A stretch of DNA of 54,941 bases from a virus (lineage: Duplodnaviria; Caudoviricetes): positions 1 through 54,941 of the IMG/VR virus record IMGVR_UViG_3300010403_000008. The stretch is one strand, 5' to 3'. Numbering within the stretch: the first letter of the stretch is position 1; each line of letters begins with the position of its first letter. The translations under genes were made by a program, and so were the position numbers. The notes beneath the pieces were generated by a model. The model was given only the letters and a program-made list of their open reading frames with translations. It was not told where the DNA came from and made no database searches. Shown here piece after piece: positions 132 to 24,307 of this stretch.

Positions 132-1027
132 GCCGTGATTCCGTTAATGTGATTGATTACTACCGTAGCACACTTGGCAGAATCCGTGTTAATATCATGC
201 TCCCAGAACCTTAAAACCGTGTATCCGTTTTGCTTCAGTGCGGCGTCTCGGTTTCTGTCTTTGGCTTTGATTGCCGCAGTCATTTTGGGATTTTTCTGAT
301 GTCCGCATTGTTCGCAGCAGTGCCAAAAGCATCCATCGCATTCGATGACTATTCCATGTGATGGAATGTAAATATCAACAAGGAACCCAGCCACTGGACA
401 GCTTGAAACATATTGAACTCCAAGCAACGAGAGTTGACGCTGCATCTCGCGCTCAATAGAAGTATTTTTTCTGGAATCGGCCCCTTTGGCGGCAATTGAC
501 TTAATTGTTGATGCGCTCATTTTAGCACGCATTTCTGGAGTGCGCTTATGGTGTCCACATCTATTTAAGCGGGATGCTATGCTGATTTTTGCGCAGTGCT
601 CTGGTGTTCGTATTTTGCCTTTAAGTGCGGCAGCTATTTTGGCTTTATGCTCTGGAGATTTCTTACGACCACGCAATGTCTTGCTGGCGCTTATGGCCCG
701 TTGGGCTTTAGTTCGTTCCAATGATTTTCTGATCTTTTCTATTACATGTGGTGGAACTACTTTGCCAAGATTGGCTGCGCGTAGTTTTGCACGAGCTTCT
801 AAGGTTATTATTTTCCCTTTTTGAGAAATGGAAATTTTGGCCTTAGTCTCTGGAGAATGCTTTCTTCCCATTTGTGAGAAGGCCATTCTTATTTTAGATG
901 CTTCTGAATGTTTCTTCCCAGTCCAATATCCTTTTCTTTTAGGCGTATCCTCCATCCGCTCCATCTTGTAGGGTCCGTAGGGCATCCGGTCATCAGCAGT
1001 CAGTGCTTTAGGGGCAGAGAGAATCAT
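128..1027 (-). CDS. Putative homing endonuclease: NUMOD3-type repeats plus a C-terminal DUF559/Vsr-like nuclease domain
   Basis: Repeated GKKHSEASK / GRKHSPETKAKIS / KSPEHKAKI units, and a C-terminal VDIYIP..IVIECDGCFWH...KDRNRDAALKQNGYTVLRFWE. Likely start is the ATG at 1027. Confidence 0.8.
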   Translation of the reverse strand: MILSAPKALTADDRMPYGPYKMERMEDTPKRKGYWTGKKHSEASKIRMAFSQMGRKHSPETKAKISISQKGKIITLEARAKLRAANLGKVVPPHVIEKIRKSLERTKAQRAISASKTLRGRKKSPEHKAKIAAALKGKIRTPEHCAKISIASRLNRCGHHKRTPEMRAKMSASTIKSIAAKGADSRKNTSIEREMQRQLSLLGVQYVSSCPVAGFLVDIYIPSHGIVIECDGCFWHCCEQCGHQKNPKMTAAIKAKDRNRDAALKQNGYTVLRFWEHDINTDSAKCATVVINHINGITA

Positions 1028-14673: not shown

Positions 14674-14802
14674 AAAGAGGAGCAGGAACGATCACTGTAT
14701 TCAGACTTCCAAGCGCCCGAACCGGTCCTCAACTTTGGCTTGAGGGTTGCGTGATCGTTCCCATAAATCCATAATCCATGATAGCTTAAATTGCAAATTA
14801 TT

Positions 14803-16092
14803 ATGCCCGAATCCGCTACCGCCTCACCCCCACCCCCTGCCCCCGACTTCACCCCCCTGCCTGTCCAGCAAGACTCCAGCAGTGGTTCTGCCCCACCGAT
14901 TGTGCCGTCAGCATCCCCTCGTGAGATTGATGTTGGAAAAGCTTCAGGCGGGGCCAAGCAGGACAAGACGGGTTCGGGGATGGATGATTCGATGAGTGAT
15001 TTGGACAGGCTGTTTGCGGAGACGGAGGCAAAGCCGGAAAAGCCCGCTGGTAACGCGAAGGATGAGAAGAAGCAGTCTGACCAGTCTGGGGACGAAAAGC
15101 CTGCTGGTGAGGCAGCAGACGCCAAGGAAGAGGGGTCTGGTGAGAAGTCTGGGGAGGACAAGACTGGGAACGGAAAGGCTGTCAGTGCCCCTGAATTGAG
15201 GAAGGCGTACGAGGCCCTGAAGAAAGAGGCTGCTGAACTGAGGGAGAAAGTGAAGTCCCGTGGTCCATCCGAGGATCAGGTGAAGGAATTGCAGACGTTT
15301 AAGGAACAGTACGAATCTGAGTACAAGCGTAGGCAGGAATTGGAAAAGGAATTGGCACAGAGCGCGTACGAACGATCCCCAGAATTCAATGAGAAGCACG
15401 CTGGCCCGTTCCGTAATGCGTACCAGAACGCTCGTAATCGCATTGCACAGTTCAAGGTGACTGACAGTGAAGGGGCAACCAGACAGGCGAGTCCTGATGA
15501 TTTTGATGCGATCATGCAGATTGGGGATGATATGCAGGCAGCAACGGCTGCACGGGAACTGTTCGGGGATACGGTGGGACCGATTGTGATGATGCAGCGG
15601 GAGAAGGTGCAGGAATTGCATGGGTCAATGCAGAAAGCGATTGCAGATGCAGAAACCAACTTCACCAAACACCAGCAGGAACAGAAGGTGATGTCAGAGC
15701 GCAAGCAGGCGCATTTGAACAAGCTGTGGACGACGCTAAATACGGGTGCAGCCGAGAAGTACCCCCAACTGTTCAAGCCTGTGGATGGGGACGAAAAGGG
15801 CAATGAATTGCTTCAGAGAGGATTTGAGCTTGTAGATAAAGTGTTCATGGATGGGAGCCAAATGGACCCTGAAGAGACGATTAAACTGCACAGTCAAGTG
15901 CGCAACAGGGCAGCAGCGTTTGGGAGACTGGTGTACCAGAACCGTACGATGAGTGAGAAGATTGCTGCACTGGAGAAGGAGTTGAACGCCTTTAAGGATA
16001 GTGCCCCGAAGAATGGGGATGGGAGAGCGGGGAAGAAGGGGGAGGGGGAATTGTTTGGGGAGGATGCATTGGAGAAGTATGTTGATCGGTAG
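14803..16092 (+). CDS. Capsid scaffolding protein
   Basis: Pro-rich and acidic N-terminus with long coiled coils; lies between portal and MCP. Confidence 0.7.
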   Translation: MPESATASPPPPAPDFTPLPVQQDSSSGSAPPIVPSASPREIDVGKASGGAKQDKTGSGMDDSMSDLDRLFAETEAKPEKPAGNAKDEKKQSDQSGDEKPAGEAADAKEEGSGEKSGEDKTGNGKAVSAPELRKAYEALKKEAAELREKVKSRGPSEDQVKELQTFKEQYESEYKRRQELEKELAQSAYERSPEFNEKHAGPFRNAYQNARNRIAQFKVTDSEGATRQASPDDFDAIMQIGDDMQAATAARELFGDTVGPIVMMQREKVQELHGSMQKAIADAETNFTKHQQEQKVMSERKQAHLNKLWTTLNTGAAEKYPQLFKPVDGDEKGNELLQRGFELVDKVFMDGSQMDPEETIKLHSQVRNRAAAFGRLVYQNRTMSEKIAALEKELNAFKDSAPKNGDGRAGKKGEGELFGEDALEKYVDR

Positions 16093-16096
16093 GTTG

Positions 16097-16501
16097 TTAC
16101 GATTTGCTGTCATCGTTATGGCGATTCATTACGGCAAATGAGTCTTCCATATCGTTCGTGATTGAATCAAGTTCGCTGAACCATTGAATTAGGTCACGAT
16201 TCCATACCCATTGCTCCCCCTTAAGGTCTCCAGTCACGAGTCTGGCTCGTCCGTTAATGTCTCCGCTGACTTCATTTACAATCCAACAACAGAAGCGTCT
16301 TGATGGAAGACTTCTGCCCTTAAGCACACTGGGATTGAAATAGAAATCACCAGAATTGCTCTTTTTAATAATGGCTGCTATTTCTTCAGGTGTTTTGTTC
16401 CAAAGCTTCTTCTCATCTTCAAAGAAGTTGGATAGCATTTTCAATTTCTTTTGTGCATGTATAAGGCTTCGTTTTACGTCTTTTGATTTATGGGTTTTCA
16501 T
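16097..16501 (-). CDS. Hypothetical protein, last gene of the inserted cassette
   Basis: 134 aa AT-rich ORF overlapping the upstream gene. Confidence 0.55.
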   Translation of the reverse strand: MKTHKSKDVKRSLIHAQKKLKMLSNFFEDEKKLWNKTPEEIAAIIKKSNSGDFYFNPSVLKGRSLPSRRFCCWIVNEVSGDINGRARLVTGDLKGEQWVWNRDLIQWFSELDSITNDMEDSFAVMNRHNDDSKS

Positions 16502-17252
16502 TGGTTGTAAAATTTCGTGCGATCAGATCAAACCGTTCCCTTCCCTCCCGATTGCCAATTAGCTGCCATCCCCTCCATGTCATTCGATGTCCATTGACTA
16601 TACTAACAAGACCATAAGTAGCGGCACATGAAATTGAGCTTTTGTATTTCTTTCCGGGTCTCCAGTTCAGGGTTTCTGGCGGAAACAGGTCAGGATTCAT
16701 GTGAACGAATCTGGTGATGTTTTTCACATAATGAATAACCCCACTGGGGTCTCTTAAAAAGCATTCTCTGGCCCTGATGTGATTTGGACTATAGCGTTTA
16801 GATTGTGGTGTGTTTCTAATCTTTCCAAGATGCAGTTCTCTTGTGCGAATCCTATTCTTTTCAGACTGAACAGCGGCCAGCCATTTCGATTCATCCCTGA
16901 ACAAGATTGGGCTGTGTCCTTTTTCCCGTTGTTGTATCCCGTGATACAGATAGGCACATTCTCTTGAGCAAGAGATATTACTTCTTGTCTTCCATGTGGT
17001 TTGGAATGTTTTACCGCATTGTACGCATACCTTTTCCTTGTCGTTTATTCGGATGGAGTTTCCGGCACACTGGGTTGAGCAATACTTTCTCCACGAATGA
17101 TTTGGTTTCTCAAGCCATTCCTTTCCGCATTTCTTACAGGTTAATGTGATACGTTTTGGTCTCATAATGAGAACCTGCATAATGTGGGATGTATGCGGGC
17201 ACGCATTTGGGGTTTGAGGAGATGGAGGGTCATGTGCTGGTTCCGTTTTCAA
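16488..17252 (-). CDS. CxxC zinc-finger repeat protein, homing-endonuclease-like DNA-binding architecture
   Basis: CKKCGKE...YCSTQC and CVQCGKTF...SCSREC repeats, with C-terminal LRDPSG..HYVKNI..F and WRGWQL. True start may be the ATG at 17165. Confidence 0.55.
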   Translation of the reverse strand: MKTEPAHDPPSPQTPNACPHTSHIMQVLIMRPKRITLTCKKCGKEWLEKPNHSWRKYCSTQCAGNSIRINDKEKVCVQCGKTFQTTWKTRSNISCSRECAYLYHGIQQREKGHSPILFRDESKWLAAVQSEKNRIRTRELHLGKIRNTPQSKRYSPNHIRARECFLRDPSGVIHYVKNITRFVHMNPDLFPPETLNWRPGKKYKSSISCAATYGLVSIVNGHRMTWRGWQLIGNREGRERFDLIARNFTTNENP

Positions 17253-17754
17253 TCTGTCTCAGTCCAGACTTGATCGACTCTTCTGCCGTCAGCCTGCGTT
17301 TAGCTGCCTCCGTAGCTGCTTCTAACGTATTGAGTGATCGTTTAGATGTTGCCATCGCAATCACTCCATGACTGCTGAACTGAGCGTGGAATTTGATTCG
17401 TTCTTCGTTCGTCATTTTATCCGGGTCTGCATCCTTGACCAACATTCTTCGGATGGTTCGTCTTGAGAGCCTGTGAATTCGTCTGGTTGCATCTGCTCCA
17501 ACCATGTGAAATTCACCAGCCTTCAGCCTGCGAATTCCTTGACCCCGCACATGGGCGAAATACTTCCCCGTCTCACGCTGAACGATTAGGATTGCACGAG
17601 ACAGAATCCATGCGTGTTTCTTGAACAATTCACGTCCCGGTGTCAGTGCCTGCAATTCAGCCCTTGTGATCAATTCGTGATGCTCAATCTTGTTTAGGTA
17701 TCGAGCGATGGTCACGGAATCAATGTTGGCCTGATGTGGGATTGCTGACTGCAT
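17230..17754 (-). CDS. Accessory protein of the Cas7-like/array cassette, possibly winged-HTH
   Basis: LITRAEL...ILSRAILIVQRETGKYFAHVRGQGIRRL; starts 6 nt after array 4. Confidence 0.65.
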   Translation of the reverse strand: MQSAIPHQANIDSVTIARYLNKIEHHELITRAELQALTPGRELFKKHAWILSRAILIVQRETGKYFAHVRGQGIRRLKAGEFHMVGADATRRIHRLSRRTIRRMLVKDADPDKMTNEERIKFHAQFSSHGVIAMATSKRSLNTLEAATEAAKRRLTAEESIKSGLRQIENGTST

Positions 17755-17760
17755 AAAATA

Positions 17761-17920
17761 GAGTGGTGTGTGGTGATTTGACTTGGGGTTATGTGCAGTG
17801 CGGTAGCTTGACGTGATCTGATTTGCGGTGCTGTGGGTTACTGTGTATTGGATTGCCGTGGCGTGAAGTGGCGTGCGTTTGATTGAGTTAGTGTGGCTTG
17901 CAGTGTTTTGGTGTGACGTG
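17761..17920 (-). repeat. Pentamer guide-like array 4: 32 units of CAM-NN (plus strand NN-KTG)
   Basis: Exact 5-nt period: gaGTG gtGTG tgGTG atTTG acTTG ggGTT atGTG caGTG...; non-coding. Confidence 0.9.
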
Positions 17921-17941
17921 GAGAGAAATTGGCCCCTAAAG

Positions 17942-18071
17942 ATGGTGTGTTGTGTCGTGCGTTGTTGTGACTTGATTTAGGGTGCAGTGGAATGCTGTGG
18001 GTTGCAGTGTAATGTTGTGACTTATCGTGCTGTGGTTTTGAGTGGAGTGGCGTGACTTGGGATGTAGTGTG
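17942..18071 (-). repeat. Pentamer guide-like array 3: 26 units
   Basis: ATGgt GTGtt GTGtc GTGcg TTGtt GTGac TTGat TTAgg GTGca GTGga...; exact 5-nt period. Confidence 0.9.
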
Positions 18072-18098
18072 GAGAAATTAAACAGCACGCAATGGGGG

Positions 18099-18228
18099 AT
18101 GGTGTGGAGTGTTGTGAGTTGGCGTGTCTTGTGTTGGCACGAATTGCGGTGTCGTGTTTTGATTTAGCGTGCAGTGTTTTGAAGTGTTGTGTGTTGCGGT
18201 GCCTTGTTGTGTCCTGATGTGTTTTGGT
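18099..18228 (-). repeat. Pentamer guide-like array 2: 26 units
   Basis: ATGgt GTGga GTGtt GTGag TTGgc GTGtc...; begins 2 nt after the Cas7-like stop codon. Confidence 0.9.
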
Positions 18229-18230
18229 GA

Positions 18231-18791
18231 TTAAATTCGTTCTAACTTGGACACTTCAAATCGACCATTAGTTCCGCCCTTCTCAGCACGGAACTGGCCC
18301 AACCCAATGAACATCCCCGCATGGTCCAAATGCTCCCGTAAAATCTTCTCGTCAATCGCATCATCCAGAACGGCGATTGTAACGGTGGTCTTCCATGAAG
18401 TCAGGGTTGGGATGCAGCGAGCAACCCGCTTTCCTGAGCCTCGTATCCCGTCTGAGTTGGCGTTGATCCAGATTGGCTTGGCATCAGCACGAGTCATCCC
18501 AAGGTCCGCATCGTCCATCACGAGTAGGCCGCTCTCGAACAGCTTCGTATAGGTTCGTTTACCCTTACCCGGAACCTGTCTGCCAAGATGCTTGGCTGCT
18601 GCACAGATGCAGAACTTCAGAGCCATAGCTGGAATGATGCACCTACCAGCCTCGTTTACGCGAAGCTTTTCGAGGTAGCAGCGAACTTCAAAATCTTCGT
18701 GGGTTTCGCGGTCTGCGCGTTTGGACGTGAATGGAGCGCCTCCCCCTAACGGGGTGACGGATTGTAAGGTTACTCGGAATTTGTTTAACAT
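18231..18791 (-). CDS. Stand-alone Cas7/RAMP-like RNA-binding protein (Vipr-like)
   Basis: RAMP hallmarks: N-terminal FRVTLQSVTPL strand, IIPAMALK (IP.S.LKG-like), and a C-terminal Gly-rich loop AGMFIGLGQFRAEKGGTNGRFEV. Confidence 0.8.
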   Translation of the reverse strand: MLNKFRVTLQSVTPLGGGAPFTSKRADRETHEDFEVRCYLEKLRVNEAGRCIIPAMALKFCICAAAKHLGRQVPGKGKRTYTKLFESGLLVMDDADLGMTRADAKPIWINANSDGIRGSGKRVARCIPTLTSWKTTVTIAVLDDAIDEKILREHLDHAGMFIGLGQFRAEKGGTNGRFEVSKLERI

Positions 18792-18910
18792 GATGGAGTG
18801 ATGTGGTGTGTTTTGGTGTGCCGTGTCTTGATGTGTCGTGTGGTGTCTTGAATTGCAGTGAAGTGAGGTAGGTTGGTTTGCTGTGCAATGGTTTGTGTTG
18901 TCGTGTCGTT
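18791..18910 (-). repeat. Pentamer guide-like array 1: 24 units, decodes to an MCP-gene target
   Basis: Minus strand AACga CACga CAAca CAAac CATtg CACag CAAac CAAcc TACct CACtt CACtg CAAtt CAAga CACca CACga CACat...; abuts the Cas7-like start codon. Confidence 0.92.
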
Positions 18911-18914
18911 TCGG

Positions 18915-19064
18915 GTCCGGTTAGACCGGACAAAAAGTCCGCTCAGGTGAAAGACCAGATCGAATGGGGCTGGTCCGGTTTCCCGGAACTGAGCGGACCG
19001 AAAGTCCAAAGTGTCAGTCTTGCGCCATTCGACCGGCTTTCACACCAGTCACGGACGAGCGGAC
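18915..19064 (-). ncRNA. Structured, potentially pseudoknotted leader RNA of the cassette
   Basis: Perfect complementary pairs: 18915-21/18925-31, 18937-46/18989-98, 18953-58/18970-75, 18960-67/19025-32 and 18947-53/19037-43. Confidence 0.55.
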
Positions 19065-19091
19065 AATCCACCACTACCAGATGTTTGTCAA
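19063..19091 (-). promoter_or_regulatory. Putative sigma70 promoter driving the leader, arrays and Cas7-like operon
   Basis: Minus strand TTGACA-N17-GATTGT. Confidence 0.5.
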
Positions 19092-19103
19092 ATTGAAATC
19101 CGT

Positions 19104-19132
19104 TTGACTTTTACTTTACCGATAATTATTGT
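19104..19132 (+). promoter_or_regulatory. Putative sigma70 promoter for the MCP operon, divergent from the cassette promoter
   Basis: TTGACT-N17-TATTGT. Confidence 0.55.
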
Positions 19133-19308
19133 GCAAAACAGCTAGGCGTAATTGGCTTTCACTAGCGGCCATCACCTGTCGTTCGGGGTGGAATAAACAA
19201 TCGAACTACAGCGTAGCGGTATGGGAACCAGAAGGTTCGCTGTTCTTCAAAAGAATCCCCAACGGAATCTCTCACGTACGAGAGAAAAACTTTTAACGAA
19301 GAACTAAA

Positions 19309-20640
19309 ATGGCTAGTACACTTTCCTGTGGGGCATTTACTCAGTACCTCGTCGATCAGCTACCTGTTTATGATAAGTTGATTTTGGAGGACATTCGTCC
19401 GATGGACGGTTGGATCGGACATGTTAAGACGGGTACGTTCGAGGCGTACTCGGGCACAGAGCATACTCTGGACCGTTTCAATCACGTGTACCCGGATACA
19501 ACCAAGGCTTGGTCCCGAACTCAGGCCAGTAATTGCATCGGAACTCCTTGTGACAAAACGGAATACTGCATTGGGTGGGGTGCGACAAGAATCACTTATT
19601 TTTTGGAAGAGCAAAGTTGGGCGACGCCATTACTTTGTTTCGATCAGGAAATGCACATCACAAAAGCAAGAGAAAATTTCCGATATATTATCGGAGGAAT
19701 TCTCAAGCCCGCCACTTCGACCATCATGTCGAACTTCCTGCGTCGTCGTGCCCTCACGATTGGCACGGGCAAGAAGTGGGTGGCCAATGCCACAATGTCT
19801 GATTTCGTGCCCACCTGGGTCACTGTAGGCGGTTCTGAACTGTATCTGGACGTGACTGTGGAACCCACTTCCCGGCTCACTCCACAAATGCTTCAGCGTC
19901 GTGTGTCCCCACTCATGCTGATGGGCTATTTCGGGAAGAACCCGTTCGGGGACCGCAAATCCATTCCTTTGATCGAACTGGTCACTGGCATGGAAACTCT
20001 GTGGGACTTGGACAAGCAGGTCTGCGACAGCAACATCTCTGGCGCATGGCGGTTCACAGAATGGACGGCAGCCAACGAGTACTGGCGGTACGGCTTCAAC
20101 GGGCAGTTGGGCAACTACGCAACCCGTGCAGACCCAATGGAGATGCGGTTCAACCGTGTTGGTCCCGTGGCTGGTGGCAAGATTCGTTTCCAGTTCATCC
20201 AGCCCTACGTGAACGTCGCATCCAGTGGGGCTGGTGGTGCCCCCGGTCTCAAGTCGATTGAGAATGAAGACTGGCAGAATGCTCGTTACTCCATCAGCTT
20301 CATCTGGCACAAGATGGCGATGGAAGCACTGGTCGCAGACGCAACCCCGGTCAATCCCGAAATGCCATTCTCGTCCCGTAACTTCGGTGGACGCTGGCAG
20401 TTCGTGAAGGACAACCTGGGTGCGTGTGAGGACGGGACAGTCATTGAGAACAAGCGCGGGAACAAGGGTCAGTTCATCAGCGACTTCAAGCTGTCGATCA
20501 GACCCATGTACACCGAATTCGCGGAAGCGATCTTCCACATGCGCAATCGGGCCTGCATCACGATCTGCCCTCCGTGTGGCACTGATCCTGGGTATCCGAC
20601 TCAGAGCTACAACAGTTGCAATCCTGACTGCACACCGTAA
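19309..20640 (+). CDS. Major capsid protein
   Basis: 443 aa, follows the scaffold (apart from the insert), strongly biased codon usage, and followed by a terminator hairpin. Confidence 0.75.
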   Translation: MASTLSCGAFTQYLVDQLPVYDKLILEDIRPMDGWIGHVKTGTFEAYSGTEHTLDRFNHVYPDTTKAWSRTQASNCIGTPCDKTEYCIGWGATRITYFLEEQSWATPLLCFDQEMHITKARENFRYIIGGILKPATSTIMSNFLRRRALTIGTGKKWVANATMSDFVPTWVTVGGSELYLDVTVEPTSRLTPQMLQRRVSPLMLMGYFGKNPFGDRKSIPLIELVTGMETLWDLDKQVCDSNISGAWRFTEWTAANEYWRYGFNGQLGNYATRADPMEMRFNRVGPVAGGKIRFQFIQPYVNVASSGAGGAPGLKSIENEDWQNARYSISFIWHKMAMEALVADATPVNPEMPFSSRNFGGRWQFVKDNLGACEDGTVIENKRGNKGQFISDFKLSIRPMYTEFAEAIFHMRNRACITICPPCGTDPGYPTQSYNSCNPDCTP

Positions 20641-22330: not shown

Positions 22331-24307
22331 ATGGCTGATAAAAGAATCCAAGACCTGACAGCGGCAGTATCGGTGGCATTGACTGATCTGTTTGAAATCT
22401 CTCAGGGTGGAGTGGCCAGCAGGAAAGCCACAGGTAGCCAGATTCAGACATCATTTACCGGCAAACAGGATGCCCTTGGATTCACCCCTGAAAACGTAGC
22501 AAACAAATCCATTGATGGGACTCTTGCTGCCAATTCAGACACCCTCTACTCCAGCCAGAAGGCGGTAAAGACGTACGTAGACAACAGTGTTGCTGCTACT
22601 GCCCCATTCGTTGACACCACATCCATCGTAAAAGGTAGTGCGGATGGGACCAAACAACTGCGCTTCGAGGTTGACGGGTTCACAGCCGGAGCTACCAGAA
22701 TCGCTACCCCTCCCAACCAGAACTTCACGATGGCTGGGATTGATGTTGCGAACGTGTTCTCAAGTGGTCAGACGTTCACCCCAGCAACGAATACGATTGC
22801 ACTCAATATTACGGGAGTCACCGTAACAGCCGCTTCCAGCCAGACCTTCTCTCGCATTGTGGGGACGTGGAACACGACTGGCACTCCGGCAGCGATGCTG
22901 ATTAACATTACTGACACCGCCAGCAATGCTGCCTCAACTTTTATCGAATGCCAGATTTCAGGAAACCAAGTATTCTCGATTGGCAAGACTGGCTCTCTTA
23001 ATTTCGTTTATAATGTTCGCCAGACGTTCAATCCCGGTGCCAACAATTCAGGACTCAATGTGGGTTCTGTGGCCGGCGATCCTGGCACATTGGTAAACGG
23101 GGACTTGTGGTACGAATCTGGAGCCAATGAACTTCATGCCAGAATTAACGGTGTGACAGTAGCCCTGGGGGCAGGTGGCGGTGGTTCCCCCCCATTTACT
23201 GACGCGACAGCAATCATCAAGGGGAGCGCAGATGCTACAAAACTACTGCGTATTGAAGTGGATGGGTTCACTGCTGCTACGACTCGTGTAGCTACCCCAC
23301 CAAATCAAGATTTCACGATAGCTGGTCTGGAAGTTCAGCAGACATTCACGAAGCGCCAGACAATTACTCCACCAGTAGATACGGCTGGATTGGTTATTTC
23401 AGGCGCATCAATTACTGGGGCAGACTTTAGCAACATCCTTGATTTGGCTGGTACTTGGAATACTACGGGTGCCCCAAGGGGGATTAAGCTTAACATCACT
23501 CATGTTGCTAGTGATGCGGCTTCACAGTTGCTAGACCTTCAGGTTGGTGGGAATACCATGTTTGGGGTGGATGTTACTGGATTTGCAGCAATATCAGGGG
23601 GCATCCTTTCTGGGGCATCCATTACCATAAATCCAGGGACATTAAATATTACCCCTGTTGTTAATACGTCTGCCTTGATCGTGTCAGGGTATTCGCTTAC
23701 GGGAGCAAATACACAGCCTGTCTTTAACTTGTCTGGAACATGGAATACTAGCGGGGCACCGACCGGGATAAGTCTTAACATTACCAATACTGCATCAAGT
23801 GTATCTTCTAGGTTAATTGATTTGCGAGTTGGAGGAATAACGTTCTTCAACGTAGACAGGCTTGGAAACCTTGAAACAGCATCTGGAATCAATGCCGCTG
23901 TTGGAAATTTCACAGTCGCCTCAGACGGCTCATTCCAAGCCGCCGGTGGTCCGTTCGCTGTGGATGTTTCGTCTAATTTGACGATTAACAGCATTCTTAC
24001 TTTCAATAGTTCTGGATTAACATTAACGGATAATGGCGCTGGACTTCTTATATCAAGTAATGCTATCTCACTTAACAATAATCTGATCAATGATGTAGCT
24101 GAACCAGTTTCACCGTCTGATGCTGCTACAAAAAACTACGTAGATAGCGTAGCGTCACTATCTGGATCAGGTTCACCGGAAGGGTCCGTAACAGCTTCGG
24201 TCGGAAAATCCTATCTGGACATTTCAAATACTGACAACCCAGGACTTTGGTACAAGGCAACCGGATCAGGAAACACAGGTTGGAGGAACCTAATTGCAGC
24301 AGGATAA
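22331..24307 (+). CDS. Tail fibre protein
   Basis: MADKRIQDL..A...D......G.ASRKAT N-terminus, SQKAVKTYVD and DAATKNYVD motifs, G/T/S/N-rich with internal repeats. Confidence 0.8.
   Translation: MADKRIQDLTAAVSVALTDLFEISQGGVASRKATGSQIQTSFTGKQDALGFTPENVANKSIDGTLAANSDTLYSSQKAVKTYVDNSVAATAPFVDTTSIVKGSADGTKQLRFEVDGFTAGATRIATPPNQNFTMAGIDVANVFSSGQTFTPATNTIALNITGVTVTAASSQTFSRIVGTWNTTGTPAAMLINITDTASNAASTFIECQISGNQVFSIGKTGSLNFVYNVRQTFNPGANNSGLNVGSVAGDPGTLVNGDLWYESGANELHARINGVTVALGAGGGGSPPFTDATAIIKGSADATKLLRIEVDGFTAATTRVATPPNQDFTIAGLEVQQTFTKRQTITPPVDTAGLVISGASITGADFSNILDLAGTWNTTGAPRGIKLNITHVASDAASQLLDLQVGGNTMFGVDVTGFAAISGGILSGASITINPGTLNITPVVNTSALIVSGYSLTGANTQPVFNLSGTWNTSGAPTGISLNITNTASSVSSRLIDLRVGGITFFNVDRLGNLETASGINAAVGNFTVASDGSFQAAGGPFAVDVSSNLTINSILTFNSSGLTLTDNGAGLLISSNAISLNNNLINDVAEPVSPSDAATKNYVDSVASLSGSGSPEGSVTASVGKSYLDISNTDNPGLWYKATGSGNTGWRNLIAAG

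Follow-up and report, generated by a model that had tools for sequence, protein, structure and literature searches.

VIPR systems are known from 2026 preprints (10.64898/2026.04.26.720920; 10.64898/2026.04.26.720927; 10.64898/2026.10.15.759431), the main texts of which describe a RAMP protein, Vipr, forming filaments on vrRNAs composed of 5'-GGY-NN-3' units (10.64898/2026.04.26.720920; 10.64898/2026.04.26.720927). Each NN dinucleotide pairs with the target and one target base, usually the wobble base of a codon, is skipped (10.64898/2026.04.26.720920), an arrangement that the preprints argue blocks escape unless the targeted gene is broken (10.64898/2026.04.26.720920; 10.64898/2026.10.15.759431). 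According to the main text of the first preprint, the characterised systems silence transcription of competing phage elements rather than cut them, types with predicted nucleases also occur, and phage SUSP1 has one vrRNA upstream and three downstream of its VIPR genes; targets were called at an NN match of at least 80%, and an own-contig control returned no self match at or above 80% (10.64898/2026.04.26.720920). Non-canonical fixed trinucleotides (GAC/NN, CAC/NN and others) next to a Vipr-like fold are recorded in the main text of a language-model survey (10.64898/2026.10.21.760802). Here, we describe a VIPR cassette in a 54,941-bp stretch of soil-phage DNA (hereafter the window), which constitutes a complete Caudoviricetes virus record with direct terminal repeats (IMG/VR record IMGVR_UViG_3300010403_000008), and its relationship to the probable major capsid protein gene beside it. 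Our preferred explanation, which we hold at a probability of roughly 0.6, is that a guide-mismatched allele of the 5' part of the capsid gene is linked to the cassette, so that the guide is directed at related phages' copies of that gene whilst the carrier is spared.

In the phage of the window (W), a minus-strand insert at about 16092-18929, which has no counterpart in the related loci L001 and L002, lies between a scaffold-like gene (14791-16092, plus strand) and a 443-amino-acid (aa) gene (19309-20640, plus strand) that is likely to encode the major capsid protein; homology to L001 restarts at 18929. Four arrays (A1 to A4) flank a 186-aa vipr open reading frame (ORF) within the insert, each array being a run of 5-nucleotide (nt) units of the form K-T-G-N-N on the plus strand, or N-N-C-A-M on the minus strand, with the fixed positions held in 22-33 of the 24-34 units per run. 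Since arrays of the GG type (12 loci) and CA type (three loci) in relatives of the Vipr family sit on the vipr-sense strand, the vrRNAs of the window would, by analogy, be read as minus-strand CAM/NN arrays. Array A4 (18793-18912, minus strand; 24 units), directly upstream of vipr, is a near-self guide: its minus-strand dinucleotides match codon positions 1 and 2 of the adjacent capsid-like gene, in frame from 19603, at 14 of 24 units, and at 12 of 16 units over codons 100-115 (19606-19653, plus strand). With unit order shuffled 1000 times and both strands of the whole window searched, no match was better than 9/16, and 13/24 was reached once. A target period of 3 alone makes A4 an outlier; periods of 2, 4, 5 and 6 do not.

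To place this match amongst relatives, capsid homologues were gathered by scans of IMG/VR and metagenomes, and the related loci so obtained are denoted by L-numbers. L001 (98% aa identity to the capsid-like protein of W) and L002 (96%) lack both arrays and vipr; L172 (97% over 119 aa) and L147 (90%) likewise have other contents at this position, described below; L003 (88%) has a homologous VIPR cassette, with a Vipr 92% identical to that of W. The guide upstream of vipr in L003 reads codons 96-107 (19594-19629, plus strand, in the window), in the same register as A4 and overlapping its target. It matches L001, L002, L172 and L113, a homologue at 61% identity, at 12/12 units, W at 10/12 and its own gene at 9/12. 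The three self mismatches of L003 are TAC to TTT (Tyr98Phe), CTG to TTG (Leu99) and AGC to TCT (Ser103), the first two of which are shared by W. Those at Leu99 and Ser103 are silent switches of codon family at six-fold-degenerate amino acids, in keeping with the argument of an initial annotation of the window, made from sequence alone, that only six-codon amino acids can change positions 1 and 2 silently.

Among the 16 core units of A4, the self mismatches fall on Ser103, Ala105, Leu108 and Leu109, and the initial annotation had correctly observed that two of the four are adjacent leucine codons, where the carrier has TTA CTT (19630-19635, plus strand) and the guide has CT and TT, the other leucine codon family in each case. 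For A4, the score is 12/16 against self, 13/16 against L001, L002, L003, L147 and L172, and 14/16 against six homologues with identities near 61%. Homologues were scored from 55 loci, 11 of which were dropped as the site motif was not found, and eight of the remaining 44 duplicate earlier loci; on this basis, six score 14, 16 score 13, 19 score 12, two score 11 and one scores 9, with no scored homologue exceeding 14/16. At the positions read, the 14/16 alleles differ from that of W in the two leucine codons only, and the combination TTR-CTN at Leu108-109 recurs in just two distant homologues of the 44 (L004 and L126). One IMG/VR locus, L146, was considered as a perfect A4 target, being the sole match to an exact ten-unit pattern; the match ends there and lies in a 20-codon ORF, and with about 0.2 such matches expected by chance (a rough estimate) it was treated as a chance occurrence.

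One might suppose instead that the partial self match is intended, with A4 tuning or timing expression of the carrier's own capsid gene, given how far a 12/16 in-frame match to the divergently transcribed neighbouring gene exceeds chance. We regard such self-regulation as very improbable: both guides fit the alleles of other phages better than their own (12/12 versus 9/12 for L003; 14/16 versus 12/16 for A4), and silent family switches at the self mismatches would weaken it. In W and L003 alike, self is matched at 75%, short of the 80% NN match used for target calling, and the own-contig control in the main text of the same preprint found other VIPRs to be free of self matches at or above 80% (10.64898/2026.04.26.720920).

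The capsid-like gene of W changes its affinity part-way along its length. Against L001, maximum chi-squared analysis places a break at gene nt 393 (window 19702; maximum chi-squared in the range 52-54, 0/1000 permutations), with divergence of 0.22 to the left and 0.076 to the right, or about 22-25% and 8-10% when L001 and L002 are taken together; against L002 the break falls at 19723 (0/1000 permutations). Of codons specifying the same amino acid in W and L001, 50-70% differ within codons 1-130 and 10-30% afterwards, whereas between L001 and L002 about 20% differ throughout, with no break. The divergent 5' tract of W thus occupies 19309-19701 (plus strand). L003 has its own joint relative to L147 at codon 109/110 (maximum chi-squared, 0/1000 permutations), differences being dense up to codon 109 and sparse beyond, with divergence of 0.27 to the left and 0.14 to the right. 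Its tract stops two codons beyond codon 107, where its own target ends; in W the target core ends at codon 115 and the tract at codon 131, 16 codons beyond. In both carriers the divergent tract extends from the cassette to a little beyond the carrier's own guide target.

The 5' tracts of the two carriers also group together. Between nt 72 and 393 of the gene, 26 informative sites unite W and L003 against L001 and L002, and the other two possible splits receive three and one. A maximum-likelihood tree of codons 25-119 joins W and L003 (bootstrap 95) on a stem of 0.26, with L001, L002, L172, L147 and seven distant homologues opposite, whereas in the tree of codons 132-443 W falls with L001 and L002 (98-100) and L003 beside the cassette-less L147 (59). 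This disagreement between the 5' and 3' trees of the gene indicates that cassette and divergent 5' class occur together on two distinct backbones, each of which has cassette-less relatives with the standard class. Cassette and divergent allele coincide in 2/2 carriers (W and L003), as do absence of the cassette and the standard allele in 4/4 relatives (L001, L002, L172 and L147). The core idea of the initial annotation, that a resistant segment of the capsid gene travels with the cassette, is thereby supported, together with its expectation of a recombination breakpoint near 19700 relative to cassette-less relatives. What can be read directly from the genomes is the make-up of the system, where its guides match, where the breakpoints lie, and that allele and cassette occur together.

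The initial annotation had also reported by eye a step in codon usage near 19700, and this is borne out by G+C content at third codon positions (GC3). A single-changepoint fit along 19309-20637 places the break at codon 131/132 (nt 19702), with GC3 rising from 0.481 on the left to 0.708 on the right (log-likelihood ratio (LLR) 10.1, reached in 2/5000 permutations); of the window's 24 ORFs of 200 aa or more, no other has so large an intragenic step, and codon positions 1 and 2 have no comparable step in G+C (LLR 2.8). The lowest GC3 in the gene is 0.40, at 19579-19713, compared with a mean of 0.52 across the window. Could the low 5' GC3 be a translational ramp, or a matter of mRNA structure, selected for efficient initiation? 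GC3 is indeed lower over the first 20-70 codons of L001, L002 and several outgroups, yet the dip in W is deepest over codons 66-131, where GC3 is 0.41 in W compared with 0.73 in L001, 0.70 in L002 and 0.62 in L003, such that the step is not lineage-wide. Furthermore, the step coincides with the divergence breakpoint, and phylogenetic affinity changes along the gene, as a ramp would not lead one to expect; we consider this explanation scarcely credible. The second-largest GC3 step belongs to a 658-aa ORF with internal repeats (22331-24304; 0.53 to 0.36 at codon 299, LLR 9.5) and may be another mosaic joint. Within codons 118-131 of the capsid-like gene (19660-19701, plus strand), 10 of 14 codons have silent changes found in W alone, all towards A/T and including Arg CGG to AGA; this cluster is shared neither with L003 nor with any cassette-less relative. 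W-specific changes in general run mostly from G/C to A/T.

The character of the divergence is overwhelmingly silent. Over codons 25-119, the protein of W is 97.9% identical to that of L001 and the protein of L003 92.6% identical, and in each case 59% of the codons for identical residues differ, which may be compared with 42-55% in homologues whose proteins are 70-79% identical to L001 over the same codons. Silent sites in the 5' tract are at saturation, with shifted codon preference, and the ratio of non-synonymous to synonymous divergence is about 0.03, marking a very conserved region. The proportion of synonymous differences between W and L003 is 0.65 in the tract and 0.56-0.59 in the cassette genes. 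Nei-Gojobori estimates for W versus L001 likewise give saturated silent sites with only 2-3 amino-acid changes in the tract; they give no sign that silent sites were positively selected, and agree with strong purifying selection on an allele of long standing. The silent divergence would be explained by an allele lineage that is old and has evolved separately, and directed recoding is not demonstrable from these data. Switches between codon families of Leu, Ser and Arg are over-represented in the 5' tract (5/14 versus 4/57; Fisher p 0.012); this excess was rejected as independent evidence, as it follows from the higher overall divergence of the tract. The proposal of the initial annotation that the capsid 5' region was recoded to escape self-targeting therefore needs dividing. 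A few changes at codon positions 1 and 2 do mismatch the guide, but the shift towards A/T-ending codons cannot itself give escape, because VIPR, as described in the main text of the first preprint, skips the wobble base (10.64898/2026.04.26.720920); and although the tract is indeed divergent, an old and separate allele lineage fits the high synonymous divergence as well as deliberate recoding does.

How might such an arrangement arise and persist? In the explanation we favour, the vrRNA upstream of vipr would be aimed at a very conserved capsid stretch of related phages (peptide TYYLEEQSWATPLLCFDQEM), reading codon positions 1 and 2 and skipping the wobble base, and a carrier would need to avoid silencing its own capsid gene. 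Both carriers would do so by holding a distinct 5' allele, in which Tyr to Phe and the Leu and Ser family switches fall at guide-read positions, with many wobble differences besides. We infer that these mismatches protect the carrier from silencing itself, and that allele and cassette are kept together by selection against recombinants, because uniting the cassette with a matching allele would turn the guide on the recombinant's own capsid gene. The stretch between the cassette and the far side of the target would then evolve as a separate island, the rest of the gene recombining freely with cassette-less relatives, and these two processes together would yield the sharp steps in divergence and GC3 at 19702. 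A bolder extension, which we put forward tentatively, is that cassette and mismatched allele form a selfish unit akin to a poison and its antidote, moving between backbones in an RNA-guided counterpart of homing or of allelic drive. On this possible extension, the guide might silence the standard allele of co-infecting relatives, or damage it with a nuclease that has escaped recognition; only genomes with the linked allele would be safe, recombinants that separate the two would be lost, and the old island of divergence would end at the target. A corollary, equally speculative, is that a wobble-skipping code may not be escape-proof, as Leu, Ser and Arg codons would permit silent escape.

Several observations weigh against the favoured explanation and must be considered alongside it. 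Firstly, the evidence from A4 is less clear-cut than that from the L003 guide. The suggestion in the initial annotation that the carrier's own site escapes A4 stands to the extent that self scores lowest (12/16) beside its close relatives, but the margin over the nearest of them is a single unit (12 versus 13 of 16) and the best homologues reach 14/16. Two A4 units mismatch all 44 scored homologues, and of these two only the Ala105 unit has a match elsewhere, in L147 (AGT); either A4 has drifted or its true target lies outside the scored homologues. No data on mismatch tolerance were found in the main text of the relevant preprint (10.64898/2026.04.26.720927). Secondly, the arrangement does not extend to other VIPRs: of 79 Vipr-encoding loci, 16 have arrays by a strict detector, and for 34 arrays of 15 of these loci the best own-locus match, sought within about 10 kb, was 5-7/10, equal to controls. 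The near-self arrangement is special to the W/L003 lineage. Thirdly, the sample comprises two carriers and four non-carriers only, and as the contig of L147 reaches just 575 nt upstream of the gene, a cassette further upstream in that genome is possible. Contigs of two other metagenomes contained fragments of the cassette and the gene only, and no joints were found in them.

Fourthly, the slot upstream of the capsid gene is itself variable, being a general insertion hot spot at which ordinary mosaicism could give rise to breakpoints. Four kinds of content are found among close relatives, with VIPR in W and L003 and an HNH-like ORF in L001 and L172, whereas L002 and L147 have small genes of other kinds; L172 has the entire slot on its contig, with the HNH-like ORF as its sole content, and L147 has an ordinary ORF at the array position. 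Insertions into such a hot spot might drag along variable lengths of the capsid 5' end, the guide match and the positions of the breakpoints being coincidence or by-product. The stretch 18929-19308 is consistent with this, as it is a fine mosaic (19100-19150, for example, is L001-like) and the tract is not one clean block. A step of similar size in the ORF at 22331-24304 points the same way, as do codons 110-117 (19636-19659), 24 nt that are nearly invariant in W, L001, L002, L172, L003 and L147 despite nearby silent sites near saturation; the exceptions are a wobble change to ATT at codon 117 in L002 and Glu to Leu at codon 114 (CTT/CTC) in L003 and L147. These codons may be a favoured crossover site, or may be constrained at the nucleic-acid level. 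Mosaicism nevertheless leaves unexplained why both carriers, on two backbones, hold one allele class, why the L003 guide is perfect on non-carriers and mismatched to self through silent family switches, and why the tract ends just past each genome's own target. We therefore judge it unlikely as a full account.

Free-standing homing endonucleases of phages provide a further model, since they lie beside their target gene, the site in the carrier is resistant, and flanking markers are co-converted. W is similar in that an element sits beside its target gene, the carrier site is altered and a flanking tract is co-inherited, and the initial annotation had likened the cassette to such an element. 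By analogy, VIPR together with a nuclease could attack the matching allele during co-infection, and repair could copy both the cassette and the resistant 5' tract. The position of the target in the gene flanking the element, the mismatches at both carriers' sites and a tract running from the element to just past the target would all be expected, and VIPR types with predicted nucleases are reported in the main text of the first preprint (10.64898/2026.04.26.720920). However, no nuclease domain was detected in any of the four cassette proteins with Pfam, PHROGs, PADLOC, NCBIfam or the ESM Atlas, and the characterised VIPRs described in that same text silence transcription and do not cut (10.64898/2026.04.26.720920). 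On the left flank, W remains about 90% or more identical to L001 and L002 almost to 16092 or so (0.68 in the last 50 nt), and no conversion tract is seen on this scaffold-side flank between W and L001/L002. The linked tract is, moreover, old, with synonymous sites near saturation, rather than the product of recent conversion. Of the likeness to homing, the altered flanking site and the co-inherited tract survive; the nuclease and the left-hand tract do not, and W departs further from homing endonucleases in its recognition by RNA guide and in having an ancient-looking tract on one side only. RNA-guided homing as such is distinctly improbable. With respect to nuclease-like genes in the slot, the HNH-homing-endonuclease-like ORF is directly upstream of the capsid gene in both L001 (L001:5161-5652, minus strand) and L172 (about 420-880, minus strand), with Pfam scores of 25.3 bits for zf-His_Me_endon and 22.7 bits for HNH_3, both just below the curated cut-offs.

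Recognition of the cassette as a VIPR system rests on its central protein and its arrays. The 186-aa product of vipr (18231-18791, minus strand) matches phrog_4652 (E-value (E) 4e-11) and has some 50 metagenomic relatives, which lack Pfam annotation; a profile of 32 family members matches one PDB chain, 36pp_D, 'SUSP1 Vipr protein' (E 6.6e-7, residues 97-182). Its AlphaFold2 model is of high confidence (pLDDT 95.1), and Foldseek matches it best to Cas7/Csm3 subunits from complexes of types III and VII (E about 4e-8, TM-score 0.5-0.6). Amongst 50,697 phage records the protein has one weak match, in Pseudomonas phage LESphi2 (28.9%), and no useful match to the cassette proteins came from Pfam, PADLOC or NCBIfam. 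W thus has three of the features by which a VIPR is recognised, namely a small RAMP with a single RRM that is related to the published Vipr, arrays of 5-nt units in which a fixed trinucleotide is followed by NN (four of them), and a skip of 1 nt at the codon wobble position, as seen in the matches of both A4 and the L003 guide. On sequence and predicted structure, these features identify the cassette as a VIPR locus of the non-canonical CAC/NN type, a repeat type already on record.

The remaining arrays lie together on the other side of vipr, all on the minus strand and defined by periodicity counts: A1 (17763-17922) has 32 units of 5 nt, and A2 (17942-18071) and A3 (18099-18228) have 26 each. 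Neither A1-A3 nor the two downstream arrays of L003 (L003:4730-4959) have a target at 10/12 or better in the 1.71 Mb of loci and window searched. By eye, the units that close A4 (AA, AC and so on) are found again in L003, and each of the four arrays has them at the end nearest vipr; these recurrent terminal units are probably not part of the guide. Elsewhere in the family, the GG-type locus L025 has a clear hairpin tail on its vrRNAs and the CA-type locus L058 ends in a short GGAAC-like motif; the arrays of W have just a few constant terminal units in common (again by eye), and no pseudoknot tail was recognised in them. L025 itself contains seven canonical GGC/NN arrays (L025:5255-6785), each with the same hairpin tail of about 45 nt and with small ORFs between. 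Contigs of a freshwater metagenome run (X2), matching at 85-99%, have a 5-nt insertion at 18823 in A4 that amounts to one extra unit, and guides seem, from this, to change by whole units. An irregular run of GG period occurs upstream of the capsid gene in a relative at 61% identity that is among the best natural A4 matches (L095:3640-3790, minus strand); no vipr gene was found within 5 kb of it, and it has no target above background.

Beyond vipr, the insert encodes three further proteins on the minus strand. The 174-aa ORF next to the arrays (17230-17754) is a candidate accessory (vap-like) gene, as its homologues stay beside vipr in relatives: it adjoins vipr also in L003 (77% aa identity) and has a homologue beside the vipr of another CAC/NN VIPR locus, L058 (25% identity, E 9e-12), and it has no match to named families in Pfam, PHROG or PADLOC. 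The 254-aa protein (16488-17252) appears to be a zinc-finger protein, with weak PHROG matches to HNH-endonuclease families, outside their catalytic parts (best E 5.6e-7, residues 33-100), and Atlas leads to zinc-binding, zf-FCS and NUMOD1 clusters; Pfam and NCBIfam gave no match, and no catalytic nuclease domain was detected in it. The 134-aa ORF at the far end of the insert (16097-16501), taken from the ORF list, is without a match in Pfam, PHROG, PADLOC and NCBIfam. At the right edge of the slot, an inverted repeat with an 11-bp outer stem and two inner stems (18937-18999, strand not assigned) is also present at L001:5612-5695, L003:5603-5683, L147:200-285 and L172:883-968, with or without a VIPR cassette; an alifold consensus of the five sequences has 20 pairs, most of them invariant. 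W and L003 are 96-100% identical over 18950-19050, compared with about 75-80% elsewhere in their genomes. Rfam and tRNA scans of the window gave no match, and a promoter and terminator scan of the window stayed at background and gave no pointer to the strand of the vrRNAs.

The identity of the gene at 19309-20640 as the major capsid protein is likely, and would follow from its position after the scaffold-like gene, its codon bias (it has the highest GC3 in the window) and leads from the ESM Atlas, where its nearest named clusters are all capsid families (scores 0.94-0.95), although these serve as a lead only. The protein has no match in Pfam, PHROG or the PDB (the last searched with a profile of its alignment), nor in the collection of 50,697 phage records, and its AlphaFold2 model (pLDDT 44.8) is too poor for a fold search.

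Should the mismatches protect the carrier, W and L003 would offer a simple model of how VIPR discriminates self from non-self, and, if the linkage is as proposed, an example of linked evolution between an RNA-guided weapon and its resistant target. A silent route round the safeguard of wobble skipping is seen in the alleles of the carriers themselves. Comparison with described systems puts these features in context. Class 1 CRISPR complexes have the same RAMP fold in Cas7/Csm3, with one subunit per repeat along the guide RNA; unlike them, W has no CRISPR array and no cas genes, its register is 5 nt rather than 6 nt, and it is phage-encoded. The non-canonical VIPR survey (10.64898/2026.10.21.760802) describes the same CAC/NN repeats with a Vipr-like fold, its text dealing with repeat patterns only, and not with targets, self matches or allele linkage. 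In the main texts of the VIPR preprints, as distinct from their supplements, we found no guide directed at an allele of the carrier's own adjacent essential gene, no silent escape through Leu/Ser family switches, and no co-inheritance of a cassette with a mismatched target or breakpoints at the target edge. The machinery is thus already known, and on comparison of the sequences the new aspects would appear to be the guide against an allelic capsid gene, the silent family-switch route and the co-inherited tract across two backbones.

The closest likeness is with the VIPRs of SUSP1 and of P. fulva (type II), as set out in the main texts. These have, as does W, a small RAMP Vipr, one array upstream and three downstream, 5-nt units, a skip at the wobble position, and targets in competing phage-like elements; they also have a small accessory gene beside vipr, for which the 174-aa ORF is the candidate in W. 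W differs from them in its fixed CAC/CAA in place of GGY, and in having no recognised pseudoknot tail. The targets of the published systems, as far as their main texts describe, are a satellite recombinase and a prophage regulator, whereas the target in W is relatives' allelic copy of its own neighbouring capsid gene; W has a near-self site at 75%, and the published control had no self match at or above 80% (10.64898/2026.04.26.720920). Finally, wobble skipping in the published account prevents silent escape, whereas the alleles of W and L003 themselves would escape silently by way of six-fold-degenerate Leu and Ser codons.

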